Origin: an uncultured Thermoleophilia bacterium
Lineage (GTDB): Bacteria; Actinomycetota; Thermoleophilia; UBA2241
NCBI GenBank assembly: GCA_963702475.1
Contig: CAVPCT010000002.1
Span: 1 to 64,000 of the forward strand
Length of the DNA stretch: 64,000 bases
Direction of reading: 5' to 3'
Notes under the pieces: generated by a model
Databases searched by the model: none
What the model was told of the DNA's origin: nothing
The model's input: the letters and a program-made list of their open reading frames with translations, nothing else
Program-made: the position numbers and the translations under genes
Part shown: in pieces, positions 35,998 to 51,374 of the stretch
How the letters are laid out: the number at the start of each line of letters is the position of its first letter
Numbering within the stretch: the stretch's first letter is position 1

Positions 35998-36630
35998 TCA
36001 GACGCCGAGCAGCTCGTCGATCTTCTTGACGCCGTCGGAGGCGTCCTCGGCGTAGGCGTCGGCGCCGATCTGGTCGGCCCAGCGCTGCGTCGCGGGGGCG
36101 CCGCCGACGACGCACTTGTAGGCGAGGCCCTCCTCGCGCACGCGCTTGATGACCTTCTTCTGCTCCTCCATCGTGGTGGTGAGCAGGGCGCTCATGCCGA
36201 TCACGTTCGCGCCGACCTCGGCGGCCTTGGTGAGGAAGGCGTCGGCGGGCACGTCGCGGCCGAGGTCGTGGACCTCGTAGCCGTTGGCCTTCAGGTAGGC
36301 GATGACGATGGCCTTGCCGATGTCGTGCACGTCGCCCTGCACGGTGCCGATCACGATCACGCCCTTGGCCGCGGCGGCCTCGCCCTCGAGGGCGGCGTTG
36401 GTGACCTCGGTGGCCCCGGCCATGGCGTCGGCGCTCATCATCAGCTCGGGGAGGAAGACCTCGCCGCTCTCGAAGAGCTCGCCGACCTCCTGGATACCCT
36501 TGACGAAGCCGTTCTGCATGATGTCGGCGGGCGCGAGGCCCTGCCCGAGGGCGCGCTTCGCGACCTCCTCGGCGGCGGCGCGGTCGGCGTCGACGATGGT
36601 CTGGGCTGCTTCTTCGTAGATGGTGGCCAT
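35998..36630 (-). CDS. Methyltransferase cognate corrinoid protein (MtbC/MttC-like)
   Basis: 'FLPELMMSA', B12 motif 'GTVQGDVHDIGK', 'SALLTTT', 'VGGA'. RBS AAGGAG. Confidence 0.93.
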   Translation of the reverse strand: MATIYEEAAQTIVDADRAAAEEVAKRALGQGLAPADIMQNGFVKGIQEVGELFESGEVFLPELMMSADAMAGATEVTNAALEGEAAAAKGVIVIGTVQGDVHDIGKAIVIAYLKANGYEVHDLGRDVPADAFLTKAAEVGANVIGMSALLTTTMEEQKKVIKRVREEGLAYKCVVGGAPATQRWADQIGADAYAEDASDGVKKIDELLGV

Positions 36631-36690
36631 GCGTGGGGCTCCTTCCTCTCTACCCGCCGGTGTCGGTTTGGCGTAGAGTCGGGTCGACGT

Positions 36691-36771
36691 GTGTGCGAGT
36701 GCAAAAGTAGCACGTTCGCGAACGTTATCAAACACACTCGCACTTGACGTCACGCGTGTCGTGCCTATGAT
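36691..36771. promoter_or_regulatory. Divergent promoter with nested inverted repeats
   Basis: Plus strand TTGACG-N16-TATGAT (36744-36771). Palindrome ACGTTCGCGAACGT (36712-36725) sits inside GTGCGAGTG...CACTCGCAC (36693-36743). Confidence 0.65.
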
Positions 36772-36997
36772 GGGCTTTGTTTCTGTTCGATTCTGCCAAT
36801 CTGGGGAGAAGCGTAGGGGCAGTGTCCGGACCAGTCTCATCGTGTGGGCCACGTCCATCCGCCTCGGCGTCCCCCGCTCGCGCCCTCTTCTTCGGCGACA
36901 CCCGCCGCCGGCTGCTCAGCCGTGTGCCGGCGGCGGTCCTGAACCGGTCCAGACGACCGATGCCCGTTCACTGCGACTCTTCGAAAGGAGGCTTGGT

Positions 36998-37945
36998 GTG
37001 AGCACACGCTTGTTCTTCGCCACGGACGTGCACGGGTCTGAGGTCTGCTGGCGCAAGTTCATCAATTCCGGCCCGCACTATGGCGCCAACATCCTGATCC
37101 TCGGTGGCGACATGACCGGCAAGGCGGTGGTGCCGATCATCGACCAGGGGTCGGGCCGCTACTACTACCACATGCAGGACGTGCGTCACGAGTTCGAAGG
37201 GCAGGAGGCCCTGGCCAAGGAGACCCGCGCCATCCGCGACCACGGCTACTACGCGGTGACGATGACCGCCGATGAGCGCGACGAGTACACGCGCGACCAG
37301 GACAAGTTCGACGAACTGTTCCATGCGCAGATGCGCAGCACCGTGGCCGACTGGGTCGAGTGGGCCGACGCCAAGCTCGCCGGCTCGGGCCTGCAGTGCA
37401 TCGTCTGCCCCGGCAACGACGACCGCCACGACATCGACGGCATCCTCGCGCAGTCGCAGCTCATCCAGGTCGGGGAGGGCAACGTCCTCGACCTGCCCGA
37501 CGGCTATCAGCTGGCCTCGAGCGGCTGGACGAACCTCACGCCATGGGACACGCCGCGCGAGGAGGACGAGCCCGAGCTCAAGAAGCGCATCGACGCCATC
37601 GTCGCGCAGGCGACCGTGTCGCCGGACCGACTTGTCCTTGGGCTGCACTGCCCGCCCTACGACACCAACCTCGACGTCGCGCCCAAGATCGACTGGGACA
37701 CCCTGACGGTCAAGGGGCAGGACACGGCGCACGTCGGATCGAGCGCGGTCAAGGAGGTCATCAAGGAGGTCCAGCCGGTCCTGTCGCTGCATGGGCACAT
37801 CCACGAGAGCCGCGCCGCGGAGCGCATCGGCCGCACGCTGGCCATCAATCCGGGCAGCTCCTACGTTGAGGGGACGCTCTCGGGCGTCGTCGTCGAGCTC
37901 GACGGCAAGAGCAAGGTCAAGAACTACCGGCTGACCATGGGGTGA
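36998..37945 (+). CDS. Calcineurin-like metallophosphoesterase (paralog of 23803-24807)
   Basis: 'ATDVHGS', 'GGDMTGK', 'PGNDD', 'HCPP', 'HGHIHE', 'NPGSSY'. RBS AAGGAGG. Confidence 0.87.
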   Translation: MSTRLFFATDVHGSEVCWRKFINSGPHYGANILILGGDMTGKAVVPIIDQGSGRYYYHMQDVRHEFEGQEALAKETRAIRDHGYYAVTMTADERDEYTRDQDKFDELFHAQMRSTVADWVEWADAKLAGSGLQCIVCPGNDDRHDIDGILAQSQLIQVGEGNVLDLPDGYQLASSGWTNLTPWDTPREEDEPELKKRIDAIVAQATVSPDRLVLGLHCPPYDTNLDVAPKIDWDTLTVKGQDTAHVGSSAVKEVIKEVQPVLSLHGHIHESRAAERIGRTLAINPGSSYVEGTLSGVVVELDGKSKVKNYRLTMG

Positions 37946-38019: not shown

Positions 38020-39771
38020 ATGGCAAGTTCATCAACTCCCGCGCCGGAGCAGACGCTCTTCGTACGCAAGGCGAGCGGCCTCGTCAAGGGGTGGTCTGGC
38101 GGGGACGGGTTCCGCTACTCGTTCATGTCCGTCAACCTCTTCCTGGCGATCTGGTCGTTCTCCTATGCGACGTTCATCCCGGGCGGCAGCATGTTCTGGG
38201 CGATCGTCATCGCGGCGATCTTCATCGCCCTCGAGATCCTCGTGTACGCCGGCCTGATCTCGGCCATGCCGCGCGCCGGTGGCGACTACGTGTGGCAGAC
38301 ACGTATCTTCCACAGCGCCGTCGGCTTCGTGGTCGCGGCGGTGGGCTGGTGGTTCATCCTCTGGCTCTGGACCCCCATCTACGCCGACATGGGCGTCCAG
38401 ACCACGGTGAAGCCCATCTTCCGCATCCTCGGCCTCAACGGCGCGGCGGACTGGATGACCAGCCGTACCGGCATCTTCATCAGCGCCCTGGTGGTCATCG
38501 CGATCGCCTCGACGCTCGTGGCCATCGGCATGAAGAGCTACGCCGTCTTCCAGAAGTGGGCGCTCTGGATCGGCATCGCCGGCGTCATCGTGTGCGGGAT
38601 CCTGCTGCTCGTGACCTCGGGCGACTCCTTCAAGGAGAAGTTCAACGAGGCCGCCAACAAGTACTACGGCGACGCCGGCACGCTCAATCTCCAGGCGTAC
38701 AAGACGGACGAGGCCGGCTACTTCGTCTACGAGGACATCTACGTCGTGCCCGAGGAGGGTGCGACCTATCCCGACGCGTTCACGGCGGTCGAGGAAGTCG
38801 GCAAGGGTACCGGCATGCCCACCTCGACGTTCGCCGGTGGTTTCAGCTGGGCCACCTGGACACTCATCCCGTTCATGCTGTTCTGGATCGCCTGGCCGAA
38901 CTGGGGGGCGACGCTCTACGGTGAGGTCCGAGGGGCCAAGGACTACCGCAAGAACATCTACCAGATGCTCGGCGGGCTCTTCGTGCCCACGGCCATCGTC
39001 CTCAGCTTCCTCGGGCTGATGACGTGGAAGGTAGGCTACCAGGCGTTCATGGGGATGATGGCCTCGTTCTGGTACTACGCGACGACGGGCTCGAACCTCT
39101 CGCCGCTCGGTGGCGACTACGTCTCGCCGACGGCGATGATCTCGTGGATCGTGCCCAACGCGGCCTTCCAGGTCATCCTCATCGCGGCCGTCTCGCTGCT
39201 GCTCTTCGGCTGGTTCGGCACCCTGTTCCTCTCGTCGACGCGCATGATCTTCGCCGCGGCCTTCGACCGCATCCTGCCTGAGGGGGCCGCACGGGTGACG
39301 TCGGGCGGCGTGCCGGTCGTCGCGCTGCTCCTCATGACGATCCCGTCCATCATCGTGGCAGCGCTCTATGCGTACACGCCGACCGATGCGACCACGGGCT
39401 ACACGATCGTCAAAGTGTTCACGCTGGATGCCACGTTCGGCATCATCATCATGTTCATGTTCTCGGGGCTCGCCTTCATGGTCATGAAGTGGCGAGCCAG
39501 GAGCATCTGGGACAGCTCGTCGCTGCCAAAGAGTGGTCTCGCCGGCATACCTTGGATGTCGGTGATAGCCGCCATCTACAGCGCGTTCCTGGTGTTCAAC
39601 ATCTACCTGTACGCCACAGACGCCATCTACGGAGTGAACAACCGGCAGTCCTTCATCTTCATGGGCGTCCTCTACGCGTCGGCCATCGTCATCTGGGTCG
39701 TCATGTACTTCGTCCGCAAGGGCCAGGGCATGGCGCTCGAGGCGGTCGCCAAGGAGATCCCGGTCGAGTAA
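38020..39771 (+). CDS. APC-family permease (paralog of 22111-23742)
   Basis: 'FVRKASGLVK', 'AMPRAGGDYVWQTR', 'YGEVRGA', C-terminal 'EIPVE'. Confidence 0.87.
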   Translation: MASSSTPAPEQTLFVRKASGLVKGWSGGDGFRYSFMSVNLFLAIWSFSYATFIPGGSMFWAIVIAAIFIALEILVYAGLISAMPRAGGDYVWQTRIFHSAVGFVVAAVGWWFILWLWTPIYADMGVQTTVKPIFRILGLNGAADWMTSRTGIFISALVVIAIASTLVAIGMKSYAVFQKWALWIGIAGVIVCGILLLVTSGDSFKEKFNEAANKYYGDAGTLNLQAYKTDEAGYFVYEDIYVVPEEGATYPDAFTAVEEVGKGTGMPTSTFAGGFSWATWTLIPFMLFWIAWPNWGATLYGEVRGAKDYRKNIYQMLGGLFVPTAIVLSFLGLMTWKVGYQAFMGMMASFWYYATTGSNLSPLGGDYVSPTAMISWIVPNAAFQVILIAAVSLLLFGWFGTLFLSSTRMIFAAAFDRILPEGAARVTSGGVPVVALLLMTIPSIIVAALYAYTPTDATTGYTIVKVFTLDATFGIIIMFMFSGLAFMVMKWRARSIWDSSSLPKSGLAGIPWMSVIAAIYSAFLVFNIYLYATDAIYGVNNRQSFIFMGVLYASAIVIWVVMYFVRKGQGMALEAVAKEIPVE

Positions 39772-39976
39772 GCCGCGAAGCGGCGAAGCCACTGAGCGAC
39801 TGTGGGCTGAAACTCGAACGACGCAGACGAAGACGCAGGCGCGGGCGGCGGCCCGGTGATCCTTCCGGGCCGCCGCCGTCCCTGACGGGGAGGCGCCCAC
39901 AAGCGGGCGTTCCCCGGAGGGTCCCCACGCCGGGGGCGCCGGGCGTGAAACGACGGCAGAGGGAGGCCGTACCTTA

Positions 39977-41377
39977 ATGAAGGTCCTCACCAGAATGGGC
40001 GACAGCTCCAACGTCGAGCTGACGATGGACGAGCTTCGCCAGGAGTTCATCGCCGGCTCCGAGCTCGCCGCCACGAAGGCCAAGATCCCGGCGCTCACCG
40101 AGAACGAGATCGACTTCCTGGTCGACATGTTCGCGGCGCCGACGCGTATCTGGGGCGTGCAGCGCGGCCACGAGGTCGTCATGACCAAGGATGGCTGCGT
40201 CAACGCCCTCAACTCCTCGCGCATGTCGAGCGGCGTCACCGCGCCGGTCAACCGCGAGGTGGGCGTGCGCCTCTTCGAGTCGATGCTCGGCTTCGACTCC
40301 ATGGAGGTGGCGCACAACGACTACTCCGTGAAGCCGCAGCGCTTCCTCAAGGCGCTGGAGCAGCTCCACATGGAGATCCTCCAGGAAGTCACCATCTTCC
40401 CGCTGTTCTACGGCTTCATGCCCAACCTGGGCCTGTACTACCGGCCCGACGGCTCGTTCGAGAACCCGTCGGACCTCATGCCGATCGGCAAGATCCCGGA
40501 GGCGCGCCGCACGCAGGAAGAAGCGCTCGAGAAGTGCATGGAAGACTGCATCGAGATGAGCGACTGCATGCTCGAGATGGGCGCCGACGGCATCGACTAC
40601 GACACCACCGCGTCCACCGGTGACGCCGAGTTCCTGGCCGTGCTCAAGACCACCGAGCACGTGGCCGGCGAGACGGGCCTCCCCGTCGAGGTCGGCATGT
40701 CGGCCGAGATGGTGCTGGGCTTCCACGGCCAGCTCGAGTACAACGGCAAGCGCCTCGCCGGCATGTGGCCGCACCAGCAGCTGCAGGTGTGCGAAGAGGC
40801 CGGCGTGGCGATCTTCGGCCCGGTCTGCAACACCAACACCAAGAAGACCGTGCCGTGGAACCTGGGTCGCGCCCTCACCTTCGTCAAGGCGTGCACCGAC
40901 ATCGCCAAGATCCCGGTGCACCCCAACGTGGGCATGGGCGTGGGCGGCGTGCCGATGTTCGAGACCCCGGCCGTGGACGTCGTGACGCGCTGCAGCGCGG
41001 CCATGATCGAGATCGGGCACGCCGACGGGTTGTAGGTCGGTACGGGTGACCCGGCCGGCATGCACATGGCGCATCTGCTGGCCTCGTCGATGGGCGGTAT
41101 CCGCGCAGCCGGAGATCTGGTTGCCCGCATGCAGCTCCAGAAGATGAGGATCGACGACGCCAAGAAGTACGTGGCCGACAAGCTCCACGTGACGCCGCTC
41201 GACCTGTCCGATCCCACCGTCATGCGAGCTCTCAGGGAAGAGCTCGACATCGGTGTGGTCACGGGCGTCCCCGGCATCGCCAAGGGCATGGCCGCCAAGT
41301 GCCGTATCGCCGAGTTGCTCGACATCAAGATCAACTCGGTGGAGCAGTTCAAGAAGAAGACCGGTCTGCACCTCTGA
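39977..41377 (+). CDS. mtbB: Dimethylamine:corrinoid methyltransferase MtbB family, 466 aa, with an in-frame amber codon (predicted pyrrolysine at codon 353)
   Basis: ORFs 39977-41035 and 41060-41377 are in one frame and separated only by TAG 41033-41035. The joined protein reads 'TRMGD...HNDYSVKP...MPNLGLY...FGPVCNTN...[13 protein letters not shown]...ADGL-(TAG)-VGTGDPAGM...[12 protein letters not shown]...LREELDIG...KINSV', matching the MtbB 'DG.(O).G.GDP' site. Confidence 0.92.
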
Positions 41378-41437
41378 GCCGGCGGCTGACGGCCGCGGCG
41401 CCTGGCGCCGCGGCCGCCCGGCTCCTGCGGACCGCAC

Positions 41438-41513: not shown

Positions 41514-42452
41514 TCAGACGGCCCTGAGCCACTCCTCGTAGTCCGGATGGGCGGCGTTGCGCTCCATGCGGTGGATGCGGTCCATGCCGTACTGGAAGAA
41601 GTCGAAGTCGAGCTTGCTGAGCGTGGCCTGGATCATCGCCCAGATGCTCCACCACAGGTCGGCGACCAGCTTGTGCAGCATCATGCGCGCGTAACGGTGC
41701 TCGTCCCAGCCGCCGCAGTACTGCTCGAGGACGGCCTTCTCTTCGGCCTCGGTGAGCGGCGTCTCCACGCAGAAGTCACCGAGGTCGAAGTACGGGTCGG
41801 TCATGCCGCCGTACTCCCAGTCGATGACCCACATCTTGCCATCGAGGGCGAGGATGAAGTTCTCGCTGAGCAGGTCGTTGTGGCAGGCGGTGAAGGCCGG
41901 CGCGTCACGCTTCATGGCCTCCTCGATGCGCGCGCCCTGTTCCAGCATCCAGTCGGTCTCCGCAGGGCGCGGCGCGCTCACGTCCTCGGCCATGCGCAGG
42001 TACTCGCGGATCATGTCGAACACGCGGATCTCGTTGGTGAAGACGGCCCTGTCGTGGTAGGTGCGCATGGCCGCGACGATCTTCTGGAGACGGTCGGCGT
42101 GTCCGGCGATGGATTCCGGGTGCATGGTCTCGCCCTCGATGAAGGGCACCACGGTGCAGTCGCCGGGCTGGAGGACGTGCAGGAGCGGCGGCGTGACGCC
42201 GGCCGCCGCCGCGGCGCGGTGGTTGCTGAGCTCGCGCGCGCGGTCGATGAACGTGTCGGTGCCCTCGCCGGGGATGCGCACGACGTACTTGCCGGCGCCG
42301 GGCGTTCCCGGCTCGCCGAGTACCGTGACCACGTAGTTGCGGTTGGTGATGCCGCCGCCGAGCTCCTGGCAGAGGACGTCCTTGTCCTGCCACTCCTCGA
42401 TGCGGGCGATGACCTCCTCGACGCTGATGGGCGCGCTGGCGGAGTCTGTCAT
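41514..42452 (-). CDS. Choline/ethanolamine kinase family protein
   Basis: 'ELGGGITNRNY', 'VVRIPG', 'CHNDLLSEN', 'IDWEYGG', 'FDLG'. Confidence 0.87.
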   Translation of the reverse strand: MTDSASAPISVEEVIARIEEWQDKDVLCQELGGGITNRNYVVTVLGEPGTPGAGKYVVRIPGEGTDTFIDRARELSNHRAAAAAGVTPPLLHVLQPGDCTVVPFIEGETMHPESIAGHADRLQKIVAAMRTYHDRAVFTNEIRVFDMIREYLRMAEDVSAPRPAETDWMLEQGARIEEAMKRDAPAFTACHNDLLSENFILALDGKMWVIDWEYGGMTDPYFDLGDFCVETPLTEAEEKAVLEQYCGGWDEHRYARMMLHKLVADLWWSIWAMIQATLSKLDFDFFQYGMDRIHRMERNAAHPDYEEWLRAV

Positions 42453-42558
42453 GGTGGTGCCTCGCTGCAGGTAGGGGTCTGGAACGGCGAACGGCCGGGG
42501 CCCTCGCGCTCTGGGGAGCATACCTGCGAGGGCCCCGGCCGTTTCAGGGGGGCTCGGA

Positions 42559-43941
42559 TCAGAGGGCCGGGACCTCGAGGCCCATCTTGGCGAGGTCGGC
42601 GCGCACGTCCTCCATCGCCTTCTGGTACTCGCTGTTCACGATCGCTTTGGTCTTCGCGTCGTAGACCTCCTGGAAGGTCATGCCCTTGTCCGGGTCCTTC
42701 AGCTTGTCCCCGAACAGCGGGAAGAGCTTCTGGGCGATGGGCTCGGCCTCGGCGCGCGTGAGCTTGGCGGCCGCGAGGCCCATCTCGGCGTGGAACTTGT
42801 GGTCGTCCGGCACCAGGGAGTCGGTCTGGACGGCCATGGCCGGGTGGCCGGAGAACACGTTGCCGCCTGAGGTGACGATGGCGAGCAGGTAACAGGCCAT
42901 CTCGTAGTGGTACTGCTTGGTGCCCGAGCCGCCGCCCAGGTACGGCAGGTTGACCATGGGGTAGCCCATGTTGCGGCCGATTGCGGCGTTGCTCATGGCG
43001 ATGGCCCAGATGAGCGGCTTGGTGGACGAGAGGTGCAGCTTGCTGTGCAGCGGCGCGTTGTAGTGGTAGGTGCCGCGGAAGACCAGGTTGCCCATGATCA
43101 TGTAGGCGGTGGCGGTGACGGCCACGCCCTCCGCGCCGCCGGCGTAGCCGCCGAAGAGCGGGGTGGAGGTGGAGCCGATATTGGCGCTGATGCTGTTGTA
43201 GAAGGCGACCTTCTGCAGAGCCTCGTAGCCCACCACCATCTCGCTGAGGAAGTCGATGAGGAAGCCGTCGCTCGGCCGCAGGCCGAACTCAGGGTAGGTG
43301 GCGGCGAACATGCTGGCCGGCTGGGAGGCCGCGGAGATGCCGTTGATGATCGGCAGGCCGGCGCGACCGGAGCGACGGATGCCCTCACGCGCGAGGCGCA
43401 CGGTCTTGCAGGCCGCGAGGATCTCCTGCGGCGAGCGCACGCGCGCGTCCTTGCCGCGCAGGTGCAGGATCGACGGCACGGACACCGAGTCGACGATGGA
43501 GAAGGACGCCATCTTCTCGACGGTGTCCATGTACACCTGCTCGTCGCTGGTGTAGATGCCGCCGCCCACGTGCACCCACGGGCGGTCGTCGGTCGTGTCG
43601 GGCCTGCGCCCGTACATGGTCTTGCGCTCGCGCCCCTCGCCGAAGGTCGCGCCCCTGGGGGCCTGCGAGCAGGCCAGCAGGATCTCTTCCGTGGTGAACT
43701 GCATCACGCGGTTGGTCTCAGGGCAGTAGGCGCCGGCCTCTGCGATGAGGTCCACGGCGGCCTCGAACACGTGGTCGGTGAGGGCGTCGTCGGTGTTGAT
43801 GATGGTCTGTTTGTCCCATTTCACGCCGTGCCGCGCGATGACCTCGCTCAGCTTGGGCACGTAGCGCTTCATGTAGTAGTCCATCTCGGACGTGAGCGGA
43901 CCGGTCTCCGCGCGGTCGAACACCTCGATAAGGTCGATCAT
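42559..43941 (-). CDS. Monomethylamine methyltransferase MtmB-family homolog, non-pyrrolysine
   Basis: 'DRAETGP', 'DDALTDHVFEAA', 'YCPETNRV', 'GEGRE', 'SGRAGLP', 'PLFGGYAGGAEG', 'GMTFQEVYD'. Uninterrupted 460-aa ORF. Confidence 0.82.
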   Translation of the reverse strand: MIDLIEVFDRAETGPLTSEMDYYMKRYVPKLSEVIARHGVKWDKQTIINTDDALTDHVFEAAVDLIAEAGAYCPETNRVMQFTTEEILLACSQAPRGATFGEGRERKTMYGRRPDTTDDRPWVHVGGGIYTSDEQVYMDTVEKMASFSIVDSVSVPSILHLRGKDARVRSPQEILAACKTVRLAREGIRRSGRAGLPIINGISAASQPASMFAATYPEFGLRPSDGFLIDFLSEMVVGYEALQKVAFYNSISANIGSTSTPLFGGYAGGAEGVAVTATAYMIMGNLVFRGTYHYNAPLHSKLHLSSTKPLIWAIAMSNAAIGRNMGYPMVNLPYLGGGSGTKQYHYEMACYLLAIVTSGGNVFSGHPAMAVQTDSLVPDDHKFHAEMGLAAAKLTRAEAEPIAQKLFPLFGDKLKDPDKGMTFQEVYDAKTKAIVNSEYQKAMEDVRADLAKMGLEVPAL

Positions 43942-43990
43942 GGCTGGCTCCTGTGGTGAGGTTCGCTGGTCAGAAGGCGGGCGTCCGGTG

Positions 43991-44638
43991 TCACACGAGC
44001 TCGCCGGCGATGCGCACGGCGTCGTAGGCGTTGGCCGCCCAGCCGTCGGCGCCGATGCTGTCGGCCCACTCCTGGGTGGTGGCGCCGCCACCGACCATGA
44101 CCTTGAACTTGTCGCGCGTACCCTGGTCCTTGAGGGCGTCGATCACGTCGCGCTGGCCGATGAGTGTGGTGGTGAGGAGCGCCGACATGGCGATGACGTC
44201 CGCGTGCACCTCGTTGGCCTTGTCGACGAACTTGAACAGGTCGACGTCGATGCCCAGGTCGTGCACCTCGTACCCCGAGGTCTCGAAGAGCAGCTTGAGG
44301 ATGTTCTTGCCGATGGAGTGCAGGTCGCCCTTGACGGTGCCCATCACGACGGTGCCCTTCTTGGGGCCCGCGCCGCCGGCCTCCTTGATGAGCGGCTCGA
44401 GCACGCCCATGGCCGCCTGGAAGGCGAGGGCCGCCTGCATGAGCTCGGGCAGGAAGATGTCCTCACACTCGAACTGCTCGCCGATGACGTTGAGGCCCGG
44501 CAGCAGGCCCTTGTCGATGACTTCCTGGGCGCTCATGCCATCGGCGAGGGCCTTGTCCACGGCGGCCAGGACGGCTTCTTCGTCCTGGTCGATGATCGCC
44601 TGCTTGAGCTGGTCGTACATGGCCTCGTTTCCCATCAC
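43991..44638 (-). CDS. Methyltransferase cognate corrinoid protein
   Basis: 'IFLPELM', 'GTVKGDLHSIGKN', 'SALLTTT', 'VMVGGG'. Confidence 0.93.
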   Translation of the reverse strand: MMGNEAMYDQLKQAIIDQDEEAVLAAVDKALADGMSAQEVIDKGLLPGLNVIGEQFECEDIFLPELMQAALAFQAAMGVLEPLIKEAGGAGPKKGTVVMGTVKGDLHSIGKNILKLLFETSGYEVHDLGIDVDLFKFVDKANEVHADVIAMSALLTTTLIGQRDVIDALKDQGTRDKFKVMVGGGATTQEWADSIGADGWAANAYDAVRIAGELV

Positions 44639-44666: not shown

Positions 44667-46109
44667 TCAGTCTTCGTTCCAGACGGCGTCGCCGGCCACG
44701 ATGCCGGGGAACTCCGCGCGGATGCGGGCGTCCAGGTCCTCGTCCCACGCGGACTGGTTGGGCTGCGTGAGGATGCCTCGGGCCACTGCGCGCGCCTTGC
44801 TCTGGGCGTCCGGCCTGCCGGCCCCCTCCCACTGGGCGCGCATGTCGCGGTTCGCCACCTTGGGGAAGAGGGCCGTCGTCTTCATGAGCGACTTCGTGTG
44901 GCGGCTCTTCATGTAGTCGCCACCGGGGCCGACGTCGGCGATGACGTCGAGCGCCAGGTTCTCCTCGCTGTACTCCAGCCCGCGCACGACGCGTTTGTTC
45001 ATCTGCGCGATCTCGTCGTCCACCACGGCCTTGCCGAAGTCGAACGCCATGAGCGAGCTGAACAGGCCGCCCATGTTGAGCAGGGTCGCGCCGGCGAGCA
45101 CCGAGGCAAGGGTGTTCATGCCGGTCTCGTAGCCCGACTGCGCGTCGTTGCTGTGGGCGTTGGTCAGGCCGATATAGCCGCCGGTGGGGACGTTGTAGAA
45201 GCGCCCGAGCTGGGCCTGGGCCATGAAGAGCATGCCGGTCTCGATGGCGCCGGGCGCGTAGGCGCCGGTGCGCATGTCGGCCACTGTGGGCAGGCTCGCG
45301 TAGATGAGCGGCGTGCCCTCCCTGACCATCTGCTGGAACACTGAGATCGCGAGGAACTCCGCGTTGCCGACGACCAGTGTGCCCATGAGCGTCATGGGTG
45401 AGGTGAGGCCGGCGTTGGGGACCACCGTGGTGTACACGGGCAGGCCCTCGCCGGTGAGGTACATCACCGCTTCGGTCGAGTCGACGTCCATGGTGAGCGG
45501 GCTGACCATGGGGCAGTAGTGGTGGTTGATGATCGGCCGCTCGTAGTAGGCCTCCTTGCCGCCGGCGATGAGCTCGCCCAGCGTGAGCACCATGTGGAGG
45601 TCGTCCATGTTGGGCGTGTTGCTGCGCACGGGCTTGAGGCAGTTCTTCAGCGCCGGGTAGAAGCGGCTGAGGCTGAACTGGCCGGGAGGCGCGTCGTCGG
45701 CGAGCGTGGAGATGGAGAAGATGTCGAAGCCCTTGAGCTCGTTGATGAGGTGGGCGATGTTGGCGATGTCGGTGGAGGTGGCGCGGCGCTCGACGCCGGT
45801 GACCGGGTCGACGACGTTGGGCGCCGAGCTGCCGGTGACGACCACGGGGCCACCGTCCGGGATGGTGCGGTCGAACTGTGGGTCGCGCCCGCGGAACGTG
45901 AAGCGCGGCGGGCACAGGCGCATGTAGCGGTCGACCACCTCGGGCGGGAAGGTGACGATGCCCTCGTCCGAGACGGCGCAGCCGTGCGTCTTGAAGACCT
46001 CGCGGGCCTTGGGGTGATGCGCGAGGATACCCACGTTCTCGAGCACCCAGAGGGACGCCTCGTGGACGCGCGCCACCTGCTCTGCGCTGAGCAACTCTGC
46101 GTACTTCAT
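44667..46109 (-). CDS. MttB-superfamily methyltransferase, non-pyrrolysine
   Basis: 'VHEASLWVLENVG', 'SPL', 'GLTSPMTL', 'DMRTGAYAPGAIE', 'DAQSGYE', 'VGPGG.Y'. No TAG. Confidence 0.9.
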   Translation of the reverse strand: MKYAELLSAEQVARVHEASLWVLENVGILAHHPKAREVFKTHGCAVSDEGIVTFPPEVVDRYMRLCPPRFTFRGRDPQFDRTIPDGGPVVVTGSSAPNVVDPVTGVERRATSTDIANIAHLINELKGFDIFSISTLADDAPPGQFSLSRFYPALKNCLKPVRSNTPNMDDLHMVLTLGELIAGGKEAYYERPIINHHYCPMVSPLTMDVDSTEAVMYLTGEGLPVYTTVVPNAGLTSPMTLMGTLVVGNAEFLAISVFQQMVREGTPLIYASLPTVADMRTGAYAPGAIETGMLFMAQAQLGRFYNVPTGGYIGLTNAHSNDAQSGYETGMNTLASVLAGATLLNMGGLFSSLMAFDFGKAVVDDEIAQMNKRVVRGLEYSEENLALDVIADVGPGGDYMKSRHTKSLMKTTALFPKVANRDMRAQWEGAGRPDAQSKARAVARGILTQPNQSAWDEDLDARIRAEFPGIVAGDAVWNED

Positions 46110-46151: not shown

Positions 46152-46934
46152 TCACGCGGACACCACGCGGAGCCCGCGGCGGAGCATCTCGTCGCGCACG
46201 TCGTCGTCGACGTCGTCGACGACGACGGTCTGGACGTCGCTGAGGCCGCAGATGACGAAGTCGCCGACTGCTCCCAGCTTGCTGCGGTCGGCGAGGACGA
46301 CGACCTCACCGCGCGTCTGGCGGATCATGGCGCGCTCCACGCCGGCGATGCCGATGCTGGCGGTGGTGACGCCCTCCTCGAGGCTGAGGCCGTCGGCGCC
46401 CAGGATGAAGCGGGACGCGTGCAGGGTGGAGACGGCCTCGATGGCCATGGGGCCCTCGAGGGTATTGCTGCGCGGCCTGAAGATGCCGCCCAGCATGATG
46501 ACGTCCAGGGACGAGTCCTGGGCGGTGGTGAGGGCGCCCACGTTGCCGGTCACGATGCGCGCGCTGGTCTGCGGGTCGACATGCGCGAGCACCTGCGCGG
46601 CCGTCGTGCCGGAGCCCAGAAAGACGGTCTCACCCGGGGCGATCATGGTGGCGGCGGCACGCGCGATGCGGTCCTTCTCGAGCGTGTGCGTGCGCACGTT
46701 GGTCACGTAGCGCGGCTCCTCCACGATGTGCTGGCGCAGGATAGCGCCGCCGTGGGTGCGCGAGAGCTGGCCGTCGTTCTCCAGCCTCTCGAGGTCGCGG
46801 CGGATGGTCATCTCCGAGACGCCGAGCAGCTCGCTCAGGGCAGAGACACGTACGCCGCGCTGCTCGGCGAGTATCTCCAGGATCCGGCCCTGTCGCTCGG
46901 CCGGGAACATCTCTCGCATGTCGGGCGCCGACAC
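46152..46934 (-). CDS. DeoR/GlpR-family transcriptional regulator (3 of 3)
   Basis: 'ERQGRI', 'LGVSEMTIRRDL', 'THGGA', 'LADRSKLG'. Start uncertain (46919, 46934 or 46955). Confidence 0.92.
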   Translation of the reverse strand: MSAPDMREMFPAERQGRILEILAEQRGVRVSALSELLGVSEMTIRRDLERLENDGQLSRTHGGAILRQHIVEEPRYVTNVRTHTLEKDRIARAAATMIAPGETVFLGSGTTAAQVLAHVDPQTSARIVTGNVGALTTAQDSSLDVIMLGGIFRPRSNTLEGPMAIEAVSTLHASRFILGADGLSLEEGVTTASIGIAGVERAMIRQTRGEVVVLADRSKLGAVGDFVICGLSDVQTVVVDDVDDDVRDEMLRRGLRVVSA

Positions 46935-46994
46935 CGTCCCCCCAGGGCTGTTCAATCTTGGTGGAATCGCTCAGATTCGAACGCTTCTGACCGA

Positions 46995-47187: not shown

Positions 47188-48207
47188 TCAGTACTCGGCG
47201 TCCGCCGCCTTCGTCTTGCCCCAGAACGTCTTGTAGATGTACGCGGTGTACACCAGCACGATGGGGCAGAAGATGACCGTCACGATCAGCATCACGGCGA
47301 GCGTCAGCGAGCCGGAGGATGCGTTGGTCACCGTGAGGCTCGTGTCCGGCGGGGTGCCGCGCGCGGGCACCATCGCCGGAAAGTTGCCGACGGCGGCGAT
47401 GCCGGCCAGCCCGATGATGATGACGGCCGACCCGAGGAACGACTTGAGCTCGCCGCCCGGCTTGTACATCTGCCGGATGGTGTAGAGCACGCCGAGCAGG
47501 AAGACGACGAGGAACAGCCACCCGGCCGCGCGACCGAACACGAGGTCGGACGCGCGCGGCACCCAGACGATAGTGGCCACCGACGTGGCGACGGCCAGCA
47601 CCGCGCACGCCCAGAACGACGTACGGCGGTACTTGAGCGCCCGCTCGTGCAGCTCGCCCTCGGACTTGACTGCCAGCCAGGCGGCGCCGTGCTGCGCGAT
47701 GAGGCACAGGCCGGTGACTCCCACCAGCAGGGCGTACGGGTTGAGCAGCTCCCAGAACGTCCCGACGTAGTTGCCCTGCGCGTCCATCGGCACGCCGCGG
47801 ATGACGTTGCCGAGAGCTACGCCCACGAGGAGCGACGGCACGAGGCTGCCGAGGAAGAAGGCGCCGTCCCACACCTTCGCCCAGCTCGTGTCACGGTGGC
47901 GGAACTCGAGCGAGACCGCCCGCAGGATCAGCCCGAAGAGCACGAGCATGATGGCGAGGTAGAAGCCGCTGAACGTCATCGCGTACACCATCGGGAAGGC
48001 GGCGAAGATGGCGCCGGCGCCCGTGATGAGCCACACCTCGTTGCCGTCCCACACGGGGCCGATAGAGGCGCGCACGACGGACCTCTCGGCTTCGCTTCGG
48101 GCGAGGAACGGATAGAGCACACCGGCGCCGAGGTCGAAGCCGTCGAGGATCACGTAGCCGGTGAGCAGGAACGCAACGAGGAAGAACCAGATATTGGGCA
48201 GGGTCAT
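47188..48207 (-). CDS. cydB: Cytochrome bd oxidase subunit II
   Basis: 'LDGFDLGAG', 'GPVWDGNEVWL', 'RAVSLEFR'. Confidence 0.95.
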   Translation of the reverse strand: MTLPNIWFFLVAFLLTGYVILDGFDLGAGVLYPFLARSEAERSVVRASIGPVWDGNEVWLITGAGAIFAAFPMVYAMTFSGFYLAIMLVLFGLILRAVSLEFRHRDTSWAKVWDGAFFLGSLVPSLLVGVALGNVIRGVPMDAQGNYVGTFWELLNPYALLVGVTGLCLIAQHGAAWLAVKSEGELHERALKYRRTSFWACAVLAVATSVATIVWVPRASDLVFGRAAGWLFLVVFLLGVLYTIRQMYKPGGELKSFLGSAVIIIGLAGIAAVGNFPAMVPARGTPPDTSLTVTNASSGSLTLAVMLIVTVIFCPIVLVYTAYIYKTFWGKTKAADAEY

Positions 48208-48211
48208 CTCG

Positions 48212-49606
48212 TCACCTCCCCGCGCCGGCGGGAGCTGCGGCGGGGCCGCTGCCGGTCTCCGCCGGGGTCTCGAGAGCGGCCTTGTCCGCCTTCAGCATGT
48301 CGGCCACGCCTTCCGGCCCCTTCTTTATGATGCCGACGAAGATGCGTAGCCAGGCGATGAAGAGCACCAGGTAGATGAGGGCGAACAGGCCCAGCGTCGT
48401 CCAGATCTCGCCTGCGGAGACCAGCGGGGAGACGCCGTCGCTCGTGCGCATCAGGTCCTGGACGACCCACGGCTGGCGACCCACCTCGGCCGCCATCCAG
48501 CCCATGTTGATGGCGAGCTCGGCGAGCGGGATACAGATGAGCAGCGCCAGGAGCATCCAGCGCGACGTCTCCAGGCGCTTGAAGATGTGCATCGCGAGGG
48601 CCACGAAGAACACGAGGATGAACAGCCCGCCCAGAGCGATCATGAGGTGGTAGCTCTGGAACGTGAGCTGCGCCGGCGGCCGGTCCGCAGCCGCGACCCG
48701 GTCGAGGCCCGGCACTTCGCGGTTCGGGTCGAGGCCGAGCATCAGGCTCAGGCCGCTCGGGATAGCCAGGCCGGTGGTACTCCCGTCGCTGTTGACCCAG
48801 CCGATGAGGGTGAGCGGCGCGTTGGTCTGCGTCGTCTGGATGTTCTCGAACGCGGCCATTTTCACGGGCTGGTGCTCGGCGACCACCAGGGCGCCCCAGT
48901 GGCCGATGAACGGCATGGCCAGCGAGACCGCCAGGCCCACGCCGAGCGCGATGAACATGAAGTGGCGCGCGAAGACCAGGTGCCGCTTTCTGAGCATGTA
49001 GTAGGCGCACACGCCGGCGGCCACGAAGCAGCCACAGACGATGGCCGCGGCGATCGTGTGGAAGTAGCGTGGTCCCGTGGACGGGTTCAAGGCCGCCGCC
49101 CAGAAGCTCGTGAGGACGGCCTTCCCGTCGACGACCTTGTAGCCTGCCGGCGTCTGCATCCACGAGTTGGCGATGAGGATCCACAGCGCCGAGAGCAGCG
49201 CTCCGATCCACACCAGCCAGGCGGAGATGTAGTAGACGCGCTTGGACACCTTCTTGCGGCCGAACAGCAGGATGCCGAGGAAGGTGGACTCGAGGAAGAA
49301 GGCGATGAGGCCTTCGGCCGCGAGGGGCGCTCCGAAGATATTGCCGACGAAGCGCGAGTAGTTGGACCAGTTCGTGCCGAAGGCGAACTCCATCGTGAGT
49401 CCCGTGGCGACGCCGATGGCAAACGTCGCCGTGAACAGCTTGATCCAGAAGGTGGAGGCTGCCCGATCGGCGGGAATCCCGCTCTTGTAGTAGCGGCGCT
49501 CTGCGAGCACCACCATCAACCCTACGCCGATGCTGATGGGGACGAAGAGAAAGTGATAGCCGACGGTGAACGCGAACTGGATGCGGGCGAGCGTTTCTGC
49601 ATCCAT
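48212..49606 (-). CDS. cydA: Cytochrome bd oxidase subunit I
   Basis: 'LARIQFAFTVGYHFLF', 'FGTNW', 'AFFLES', 'ANSWMQTP', 'QPVKMAAFE', 'EVGRQPW'. Confidence 0.95.
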   Translation of the reverse strand: MDAETLARIQFAFTVGYHFLFVPISIGVGLMVVLAERRYYKSGIPADRAASTFWIKLFTATFAIGVATGLTMEFAFGTNWSNYSRFVGNIFGAPLAAEGLIAFFLESTFLGILLFGRKKVSKRVYYISAWLVWIGALLSALWILIANSWMQTPAGYKVVDGKAVLTSFWAAALNPSTGPRYFHTIAAAIVCGCFVAAGVCAYYMLRKRHLVFARHFMFIALGVGLAVSLAMPFIGHWGALVVAEHQPVKMAAFENIQTTQTNAPLTLIGWVNSDGSTTGLAIPSGLSLMLGLDPNREVPGLDRVAAADRPPAQLTFQSYHLMIALGGLFILVFFVALAMHIFKRLETSRWMLLALLICIPLAELAINMGWMAAEVGRQPWVVQDLMRTSDGVSPLVSAGEIWTTLGLFALIYLVLFIAWLRIFVGIIKKGPEGVADMLKADKAALETPAETGSGPAAAPAGAGR

Positions 49607-50361: not shown

Positions 50362-50721
50362 GGGGGCGAACAGGTCTCGACATGGGCTGTACCGCGGTGG
50401 GAGCAGCAGGCCGAGGTCCGGTGGCCTCGTTAAACTGCCGGAACAACACACTTGCCGAGGATAACTCCTTCGCACTCGCTGCCTAATTAATTAGGCAGCG
50501 CATCGCACCCGGCTCGCCCGTGGCCGGGACTCGCGGTGTCATCTAACGGGCTGGGGTGCGGTCGCTCTGCTCCGTGCGAGCGCATCCGAGACTGATCGGG
50601 GCTGGCGAGCGGAACCTGTGCCGCTGCGGGGTCCGTAAGCGAGACAAATGCGACGGCTAAGCCTGTAGAGACTCCGCCGAGGCGTCCGTGGACGCGGGTT
50701 CGATTCCCGCCGCCTCCACCA
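50362..50721 (+). ncRNA. ssrA: tmRNA; tag peptide (A)AEDNSFALAA*
   Basis: 5' GGGGGCGAACAGGTCTCGAC; 3' GACGCGGGTTCGATTCCCGCCGCCTCCACCA; tag ORF 50454-50486 ending in ALAA-TAA. Confidence 0.96.
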
Positions 50722-50728
50722 ACTCTGT

Positions 50729-50782
50729 CGTCCTGCGTCCTGCGGCATCGTCCTGCGGCTCCTGCGGCTCGTCCTGCGGCTC
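50729..50782. repeat. Imperfect tandem repeat (TCCTGCG x5)
   Basis: TCCTGCG at 50731, 50738, 50751, 50760 and 50772. Confidence 0.7.
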
Positions 50783-50798
50783 TCGCGCCGTGGGCGCG

Positions 50799-51374
50799 TC
50801 AGCGCTTGCGTCCGCCGCGGCGCTGCCTGCTCTTCGCGGCGGGCTGGGCGGGCTGCGGCGCAGCGGGCGCTCGCCCGGGCGCAGCAGGGGCCCCTCCCGA
50901 GGCCTGGGCCGCGCGTGCCTTCGCGAGCCGCGCGCTCTGCATCCAGATGAACGCGTAGGCCGTGGTACCCACGAGCAGTCGCATCACCAGGGAGTTCACG
51001 GCGCCGCCGAGCGTCAGGATGCCGGTGATGGTCCCCGTGACCGCGGTGGTCCACATCACGAGGTTGACGTCGGCCACCTGCCTGCGCGTCAGGATTCTGA
51101 AGAACGTCGTGTTGACGGCGAGGAGCGCCATGAGCAGGGACGCGACCGCCATCAGGGCGAGCACGATGTACATGGGCCCCGCCTTGACCGCCGGGTCGGG
51201 CGCCAGGACGAAGCGGACCGCCGAGCCGACCATCGTGACGGCGATCACGACGACCACGACGACGAGCAGGGTCAGCGTCGTCGTGCGCATCGACTGCGCG
51301 CTCTTCGTCGGTCTCGTCGTCAGAAGGCTTCCGCCGTTGGCGGGCTTCGGGTCTTTGGGCGTGAGCGGGCTCAT
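50799..51374 (-). CDS. 4-TM hypothetical membrane protein with a basic C-terminus
   Basis: Four hydrophobic stretches and the tail 'KSRQRRGGRKR'. Confidence 0.7.
   Translation of the reverse strand: MSPLTPKDPKPANGGSLLTTRPTKSAQSMRTTTLTLLVVVVVVIAVTMVGSAVRFVLAPDPAVKAGPMYIVLALMAVASLLMALLAVNTTFFRILTRRQVADVNLVMWTTAVTGTITGILTLGGAVNSLVMRLLVGTTAYAFIWMQSARLAKARAAQASGGAPAAPGRAPAAPQPAQPAAKSRQRRGGRKR

Follow-up and report, generated by a model that had tools for sequence, protein, structure and literature searches.

The closest described relatives of the gene studied here are the MtbB proteins of Methanosarcina, which are dimethylamine:corrinoid methyltransferases that contain a single pyrrolysine encoded by UAG, and whose copies are nearly identical to each other. 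The determination of the structure of MtbB is described as still being pursued (PMC9842639). In bacteria, the pyrrolysine (Pyl) systems in which the synthetase is split into PylSn and PylSc have been described mainly in Firmicutes and Deltaproteobacteria, and "two Actinobacteria" are counted among 81 bacterial genomes that encode the pyrrolysyl-tRNA synthetase PylRS (PMC9630628; the count is repeated in PMC11764691). Metagenome-assembled genomes (MAGs) of Actinobacteriota from Stordalen Mire (Bog-752, RBG-16-64-13) have been reported to express Pyl-encoding mttB and mtbB genes (PMC10805028). Here we describe an mtbB gene at positions 39977-41377 of a stretch of DNA of 64,000 nucleotides (nt), referred to as the window, which is part of contig C2 of a 9-contig assembly (completeness 93.8%, contamination 6.49%). 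On the evidence of the genome sequence, we argue that this gene very probably encodes a full-length, functional corrinoid methyltransferase of the MtbB family, whose codon 353, a UAG, is read as pyrrolysine by means of the organism's own pyl system.

The sequence, read directly, shows that the gene starts with the ATG at 39977 and ends with the TGA at 41375-41377; its sole in-frame TAG, at 41033-41035, is codon 353 of 466. Translation with table 11 splits it into two open reading frames (ORFs) that are in the same frame, 39977-41035 (352 amino acids, aa) and 41060-41377 (105 aa). An earlier note on this DNA had described two same-frame ORFs parted only by the TAG, which read through give a protein of 466 aa, and this description is exact. 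The Pfam family PF09505 (Dimeth_Pyl) spans the TAG uninterrupted, from residue 5 to residue 461 of the read-through product, with 612.8 bits. The equivalog model TIGR02368 (dimethylamine--corrinoid protein Co-methyltransferase) gives 503.8 bits for a cut-off of 369.1, the same residues 5-461 being aligned to positions 7-465 of the 466 of the profile. Just past the stop codon, at 41391-41415, a G+C-rich inverted repeat without a T run can be read by eye; it is a possible terminator-like hairpin.

The TAG is strictly conserved. The T, the A and the G are each invariant in the 52 orthologues (52/52), and a stop is found at the homologous codon in all of the 80 related public loci: it is present in 86 of 86 high-scoring segment pairs that span codon 353, and all 84 of those on the plus strand read TAG. 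In the genome itself, the same alignment column holds a TAG in the seven full-length mtbB paralogues (7/7), within the motif D-G-[LF]-O-[VA]-G-x-G-D. The sequence that follows the TAG is under purifying selection. Between orthologues, the differences per codon position (first/second/third) amount to 0.118/0.057/0.287 after the TAG and to 0.114/0.073/0.252 before it; since the position-biased divergence after the TAG mirrors that before, the 113 codons past the TAG evolve as translated sequence, as do the 352 codons that precede it. The residues located after the TAG that are invariant across an alignment of 22 sequences include G355, G357, D358, G361, M362, H366 and the stretch G379-R384.

The best homologues in a collection of 5.8 billion proteins are nearly all 343-356 aa long, with 352 and 353 as the usual lengths, so that about 75% of the query is covered; these homologues are stored as pieces of about 352 aa, which indicates that gene callers stop at the TAG. 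The earlier note had expected standard callers to report fragments and had considered that the protein is conserved on both sides of the stop: the lengths of the database homologues bear out the former, while the one-piece Dimeth_Pyl match and the similar codon-position divergence agree with the latter.

The genome contains a complete set of pyl genes: pylT, pylSn, pylSc and pylBCD are all present, and curated cut-offs are passed. The genes pylB (437.6 bits, cut-off 348.2), pylC (323.8 bits, cut-off 248.3) and pylD (209.6 bits, cut-off 150.05) are adjacent on contig C3. The two parts of the synthetase are recognized by TIGR03912 for pylSn (126.2 bits, cut-off 51.15) and by TIGR02367 for pylSc (314.3-314.6 bits, cut-off 178.15). 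ARAGORN detects a tRNA-Pyl with the anticodon CUA at C3:641046-641118. In its fold (-34.8 kcal/mol), a single base separates the acceptor stem from the D stem, which has 4 bp and a loop of 5 nt; the anticodon stem is long, and the variable region has 2 nt. The short D arm, the long anticodon stem and the 2-nt variable region are features that we take to be hallmarks of tRNA-Pyl. The earlier note had proposed that the organism decodes UAG as pyrrolysine; the presence of the pyl set and the conservation of the TAG both argue for this proposal.

We note that the order of the pyl genes, at C3:637885-658501, is unusual: pylB, pylC and pylD are followed by pylT, then by pylSn about 1.1 kb further on. 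The pylSc gene is encoded on the other strand, at a distance of about 16 kb from that cluster, and adjoins one of the other mtbB copies (C3:655986-657347). The same contig also carries a tRNA-Sec (anticodon TCA, C3:167171-167268); the organism probably also decodes selenocysteine.

The TAG of mtbB aligns with the expected Pyl site. The Rfam model PYLIS_2 (RF02509, the pyrrolysine insertion sequence of the mtbB type) opens with a UAG, and its positions 1-3 are aligned to 41033-41035, the codon that also falls in the TAG column common to the seven paralogues. The rest of this match should not be over-read, since shuffle controls do not separate the pairing from relatedness and coding constraint: 494 of 500 shuffles show at least as many pairs with double changes. 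Pairing in helix 1 amounts to 63.3% over 80 sequences, three of its pairs being almost never formed; it reaches 94.6% in helix 2 (41105-41124). One pair of helix 2 covaries (CG 46, AU 12, UA 10, UG 5), and the two bases are the third positions of an Ala and a Val codon. It may be that the PYLIS_2 match largely reflects the conservation of the coding sequence. Only the second hairpin, which sits 72-92 nt past the TAG, is well kept in this lineage, and any role that it has is putative.

A model of MtbB was built with AlphaFold2 from 22 read-through homologues (predicted local distance difference test score, pLDDT, 90.0; predicted template modelling score, pTM, 0.91). The C-terminal part is well folded in this model, where a triose-phosphate isomerase (TIM) barrel extends approximately from residue 64 to residue 395 and residue 353 is part of a predicted beta strand (351-354). 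The best matches obtained with VIA-align are the barrel of the homocysteine domain of MetH (Z 18.6, root-mean-square deviation 3.3, 249 aligned), the Methanosarcina mazei methyltransferase 4ay7 (Z 17.6), BHMT and UROD; the predicted barrel is thus most like those of methyl-transfer enzymes. Foldseek run against the PDB returned generic TIM barrels only (HisF, aldolases, BHMT), with template modelling scores of 0.3-0.58. MtmB and MttB are not among the 50 structural matches listed, which does not exclude a likeness to them. A sequence search of the PDB with the read-through protein gave no match at E up to 0.01, and no structure of MtbB was found.

The host belongs to the class Thermoleophilia of the Actinomycetota, as judged from ribosomal RNA and from the record titles of the relatives of its genes. 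The 3' half of the 23S rRNA and the 5S rRNA of the window are 98, 98 and 97% identical to those of three MAGs titled "uncultured Thermoleophilia bacterium", and 94% identical to those of two more. According to the titles of the MAGs, the 80 nearest mtbB loci come from Thermoleophilia (58), Actinomycetes (14), Actinomycetota (7) and Deltaproteobacteria (1). The G+C content of all nine contigs is 69.5-70.9%. The earlier note had seen a high-G+C, probably actinobacterial genome, which fits the Thermoleophilia titles of the 23S and 5S relatives. A high-G+C host from the Bacillota had been considered from weak CwlD/SleB matches of the amidase located beside pylSc; this was dropped given the rRNA and the relatives of mtbB.

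Regarding the RNA genes, the regions 1-1238 and 50362-50721 of the window hold the 23S rRNA (its 3' part, as the start of the window truncates it), the 5S rRNA and a transfer-messenger RNA (tmRNA) with the tag peptide AEDNSFALAA; a second candidate reported by ARAGORN as "tmRNA*" at 50627-51049 is unsupported by Rfam. Among the 80 mtbB loci, the only one with a non-actinobacterial title (L085, the MAG from Deltaproteobacteria) has an mtbB that groups, at 69% identity, with a Thermoleophilia paralogue group. This may result from gene transfer or from a mis-binned contig.

The gene in the window is one of seven full-length mtbB copies in the genome, each of which has one TAG. The six others also pass TIGR02368 (388.5-543.5 bits, the window copy being the second-best of the seven) and are 43-59% identical to the window copy, which is too divergent for strain duplicates. 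About 20 intact methylamine methyltransferase genes bear a TAG: the seven mtbB, at least 12 full-length mttB, in which the TAG occupies one shared column, and one mtmB. The mttB set consists of 12 of the 14 MttB matches with a single TAG. C6:21-1430, which is found at the end of a contig, and the partial match C5:931793-932863 were dropped, as was C5:364272-365009 (partial, with two TAG). The homologues that do not use pyrrolysine comprise about 60 MttB-family matches and four MtmB.

Altogether, 75 MttB-family matches are found in this 4.3-Mb genome, mostly without an in-frame stop and strongly clustered on contig C4; they presumably form a very large set of quaternary-amine methyltransferases. 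There are also fragmentary or frame-broken mtbB matches (C4:76-1430, C5:362180-363436, C7:37364-38577 and C6:6123-6362), one of them with an internal TGA, which may be pseudogenes, truncations at contig ends or assembly errors.

By analogy with Methanosarcina, the following mechanism can be proposed. The UAG codon 353 would be translated with tRNA-Pyl(CUA), charged by the split synthetase PylSn and PylSc with pyrrolysine made by the products of pylBCD. The TIM-barrel protein MtbB would use its pyrrolysine to bind and activate dimethylamine, as presumed from Methanosarcina MtbB, and one methyl group would be transferred from dimethylamine to the Co(I) of its cognate corrinoid partner, for which the product of the gene 35998-36858 is a candidate. 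The methyl group would then be passed on to tetrahydrofolate and the Wood–Ljungdahl pathway, and not to coenzyme M. The genome contains three RamA-type activase loci, three pterin-binding methyltransferases and an AcsB/CdhC gene at C5:445925, which is close to RamA-type and pterin-binding matches (C5:450617-452940); the presence of these genes makes a flow of methyl groups to tetrahydrofolate and the Wood–Ljungdahl pathway plausible.

The features of the window that surround mtbB are listed in Table 1.

Table 1. The mtbB gene of the window, the signals associated with it and the neighbouring genes.
Feature	Position	Strand	Evidence or remark
Corrinoid (B12-binding) protein, methyltransferase-cognate type, candidate methyl acceptor (MtbC-like)	35998..36858	-	PF02310, PF02607
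Calcineurin-like metallophosphoesterase	36689..37945	+	PF14582 29.2 bits; DVHG, GNDD and GHIH motifs in translation
APC-type (amino acid permease family) transporter	38020..39771	+	PF13520 48.9 bits; directly 5' of mtbB
Shine-Dalgarno-like GGGAGG	39961..39966	+	10 nt 5' of the mtbB start codon, read directly
mtbB, dimethylamine:corrinoid methyltransferase family gene	39977..41377	+	466 codons, one in-frame TAG
TAG codon 353, inferred pyrrolysine codon	41033..41035	+	RF02509 positions 1-3, paralogue column, orthologues, related loci
Match to Rfam PYLIS_2 (RF02509, pyrrolysine insertion sequence, mtbB type)	41033..41132	+	63.7 bits, gathering score 36
Choline/ethanolamine-kinase-family protein	41514..42521	-	PF01633 111.5 bits, PF01636 75.6 bits
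MtmB-family protein, no in-frame stop (non-pyrrolysine)	42559..44091	-	PF05369 221.1 bits, full length
Non-pyrrolysine MttB-superfamily methyltransferase, no internal stop	44667..46109	-	PF06253 283.8 bits; TIGR02369 354.1 bits, under the cut-off of 525
DeoR-family transcription regulator	46152..46955	-	PF00455 126 bits, PF08220 65.1 bits

The corrinoid protein passes TIGR02370, the general model for corrinoid proteins cognate to methyltransferases (218.8 bits, cut-off 215.3). The phosphoesterase probably starts well after 36689, given that some 100 residues at its beginning look non-coding and overlap the corrinoid protein gene. The transporter is a candidate for the import of the substrate. 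Near the orthologues of mtbB, a cluster recurs that consists of a homologue of MtmB without pyrrolysine, a choline/ethanolamine-kinase-like protein, a metallophosphoesterase, an APC permease and the Pyl-containing mtbB, and these genes are co-directional in many relatives (L038, L041, L044, L046, L050, L052 and others). At 60% identity or more, the genes of this cluster are found in 22 (MtmB homologue), 12 (kinase-like), 28 (phosphoesterase) and 17 (permease) of 52 loci; the permease is located upstream of the mtbB orthologue and is also present at lower identity in other mtbB loci, and in the 22 loci out of 52 where the non-Pyl MtmB homologue stands beside the mtbB orthologue it is 84-94% identical. 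The window differs in that both the kinase gene and that of the MtmB homologue are inverted and placed 3' of mtbB, where they are followed by the non-Pyl MttB homologue and the DeoR regulator.

Close to this methyltransferase cluster, the subunits I and II of a cytochrome bd oxidase are encoded at 47188-49606. The proximity of a cytochrome bd and of methyltransferases, in a genome that codes for an acetyl-CoA synthase, suggests some tolerance to oxygen or some use of it.

Several observations weigh against the conclusion that the gene codes for a pyrrolysine-containing dimethylamine methyltransferase of a Thermoleophilia bacterium. The insertion of pyrrolysine is deduced from genes only. The placement of the Pyl column depends on the Rfam model, the curated hidden Markov models and the paralogues. 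The corrinoid protein 35998-36858 gives 218.2 bits with the MtbC equivalog model NF041607, which is under the cut-off of 350, and the conserved cluster (non-Pyl MtmB homologue, kinase and phosphoesterase) is not explained by the simple use of dimethylamine. With a contamination of 6.49%, the numbers of paralogues could be slightly too high.

The TAG is bridged by contigs of four further public runs, among them two metatranscriptome libraries. These runs are stored as contigs, mostly of relatives that are 90-99% alike, from which neither the ends of an RNA nor its level can be read. No listed difference hits 41033-41035, and the third-codon positions 41038, 41041 and 41044 vary; it is important to keep in mind that this comparison lists the best-supported differences only, that 103 others are unlisted, and that the invariance of the TAG in these runs is therefore not proven. 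The bridging contigs lend weak support to the TAG.

A last observation of this kind is that WhiB (PF02467) was not found in the host genome, which is 93.8% complete. WhiB is found in 209 of 401 genomes of a phylum sample, a tally that includes 14 unpublished genomes, and among 14 named control genomes it was found only in Corynebacterium; this distribution identifies the sampled phylum as the Actinomycetota. As a matter of fact, none of the 31 genomes of the host's class in this sample has WhiB (0/31). Its lack, which is a trait of the class as sampled, was rejected as an argument against the placement of the host.

The identity of the substrate is the point on which another explanation holds best. 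Instead of free dimethylamine, the same Pyl enzyme could use another methylated amine, related to choline or ethanolamine head groups, such as N,N-dimethylethanolamine or N-methylethanolamine, in series with the non-Pyl MtmB homologue. We consider this unlikely. It would account for the recurrence, in the 52 loci, of the MtmB homologue, the kinase-like protein, the phosphoesterase and the permease; MtqB, another MtmB homologue without pyrrolysine, demethylates tetramethylammonium and choline (PMC13044021), and the genome keeps MtbB paralogues that are only 43-59% identical to the window copy, unlike the nearly identical copies of Methanosarcina. However, the window copy scores well past the cut-off of the MtbB equivalog, no variation is seen in the Pyl motif or in the residues that flank it, and a neighbourhood alone does not define a substrate.

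A broader version of this idea is more doubtful still: the MtbB family would have diversified, in this family of Thermoleophilia, into at least seven paralogue groups with different substrates, the group of the window acting on a choline-derived secondary or tertiary amine and not on free dimethylamine. If it were true, this would be the first pyrrolysine enzyme whose substrate is not mono-, di- or trimethylamine.

Going back to the reading of codon 353 as pyrrolysine in an MtbB-family enzyme, one may ask whether UAG is a sense codon everywhere in this genome. The full reassignment of UAG to pyrrolysine (a "Pyl code", in which every TAG is sense) has been reported in some archaea (preprint 10.1101/2024.09.30.615893), and coding-like third-position G+C downstream of the stop is more common in crude ORFs (100 aa or more, with a third-position G+C that exceeds 0.80) that end with TAG than in those that end with TGA (27% and 12.9%, respectively). 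Still, we find such a code very improbable here. TAG ends 430 of 2739 crude ORFs (15.7%), which shows that the decoding of UAG is ambiguous and that the codon has not been reassigned. The median third-position G+C downstream is 0.775 after TAG, close to the value of 0.75 after TGA and far below the coding level, which exceeds 0.9. The next in-frame stop is found at a median distance of 58 codons after TAG and after TGA alike, and these distances show no sign of a genome-wide adaptation by means of back-up stops.

There are 86 crude ORFs that end with TAG and are followed by at least 60 open, G+C-rich codons, about 18 of which are known methyltransferases. Of the remaining ones, 20 candidates for read-through (extensions of 61-168 codons) were searched for a Pfam domain that spans the TAG, and none was found (0/20). 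In four of them, what follows the TAG is a complete domain of its own, and there are two genes in one frame; five others, in which no family was recognized, look like antisense artefacts of the crude caller. UAG is thus a stop in most genes of this organism and pyrrolysine in about 20 methylamine methyltransferase genes, an ambiguity that is also described in other users of pyrrolysine.

The opposite possibility, that the TAG of mtbB is a true stop and that the gene is a decaying relic or a pair of fragments without read-through, is hardly credible. Table 11 yields two ORFs, and UAG does terminate other genes in this genome, as the 430 crude ORFs that end with it indicate; on the contrary, the codons located after the TAG diverge with the same third-position bias as those before it, many residues past the TAG are invariant across paralogues, the TAG itself is kept in 52 of 52 orthologues, and the genome has a complete set of pyl genes.

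Last, that the TAG arose from an error of sequencing or assembly, or that a Pyl-using member of the Bacillota or Desulfobacterota contributed the contig as a contaminant, can practically be dismissed in spite of the division of the assembly into nine contigs and of its estimated contamination, since the TAG is also present in the 52 orthologues, which come from other assemblies, and in contigs of other runs, the window contig's own 23S and 5S rRNA are 97-98% identical to those of Thermoleophilia-titled MAGs, and all nine contigs have a similarly high G+C content.

The use of pyrrolysine is rare in the phylum and yet the rule in the family of the host. PylSc was found in two of the 401 genomes of an even sample of the phylum, both in the host's class. 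In a sample of 401 genomes of this class, 83 have PylSc: the host's family accounts for 73 of them, out of 79 genomes sampled (44 of 48 in its genus), a second family for 9 out of 61, and the 260 genomes of the other ten families for none. Pyl decoding is therefore a stable, clade-wide trait of the host's family. The earlier note had considered that a Pyl-using host from the Actinomycetota would be unusual; this holds for the phylum as sampled, but the rarity was overstated, considering that Pyl in this phylum is already in print and that nearly all the sampled genomes of the host's family have the synthetase. A search of the open-access full-text literature found no paper that names Thermoleophilia as users of pyrrolysine.

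These observations have consequences for annotation, ecology and work on the genetic code. Standard annotation breaks such genes, and the database entry of nearly every close homologue is a piece of about 352 aa. With their dozens of corrinoid methyltransferase genes and their acetyl-CoA synthase, these bacteria may be rivals of the methylotrophic methanogens for the methylamines of soils and sediments. For work on the genetic code, the clade offers a PylRS/tRNA-Pyl pair from high-G+C bacteria.

How does this locus compare with what has been described? Pyl in Actinobacteria is already in print and the known mechanism is unchanged; what is added by the tally across the clade and by the large number of TAG-bearing genes is detail, and no new principle. 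The Stordalen Mire MAGs belong to the same phylum and have the same types of genes, and a MAG named "isolate bog_752" (L056) carries an mtbB orthologue that is 85% identical to the gene of the window, with a TAG at the same codon. What is reported for Stordalen Mire is expression at the level of the community; in its available parts, PMC10805028 is silent on the pyl genes, on the families of paralogues and on the distribution across the clade.

The bacterial systems with a split PylS resemble the one described here in that pylSn and pylSc are separate, pylBCD and a CUA tRNA are present, and UAG is still used as a stop. The differences are the phylum, the location of pylSc some 16 kb away from the pylBCD-pylT-pylSn cluster, and the presence of many TAG-bearing methyltransferase genes. 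Regarding MtqB, which comes from Methanococcoides methylutens Q3c (PMC13044021), the neighbour of mtbB at 42559-44091 is likewise a full-length member of the MtmB family without an in-frame stop, the two being likened by family only.

The comparison with Methanosarcina MtbB is the closest. The gene of the window gives a full-length match to the equivalog, has a similar length, has a single UAG at the start of the match to the PYLIS model, and has a corrinoid protein and a permease nearby. It differs in that the host is a bacterium with 70% G+C, that helix 1 of the PYLIS model is poorly kept, that the presumed methyl acceptor is tetrahydrofolate and the Wood–Ljungdahl pathway instead of coenzyme M, and that the genome contains seven paralogues which, unlike the Methanosarcina copies, are divergent.

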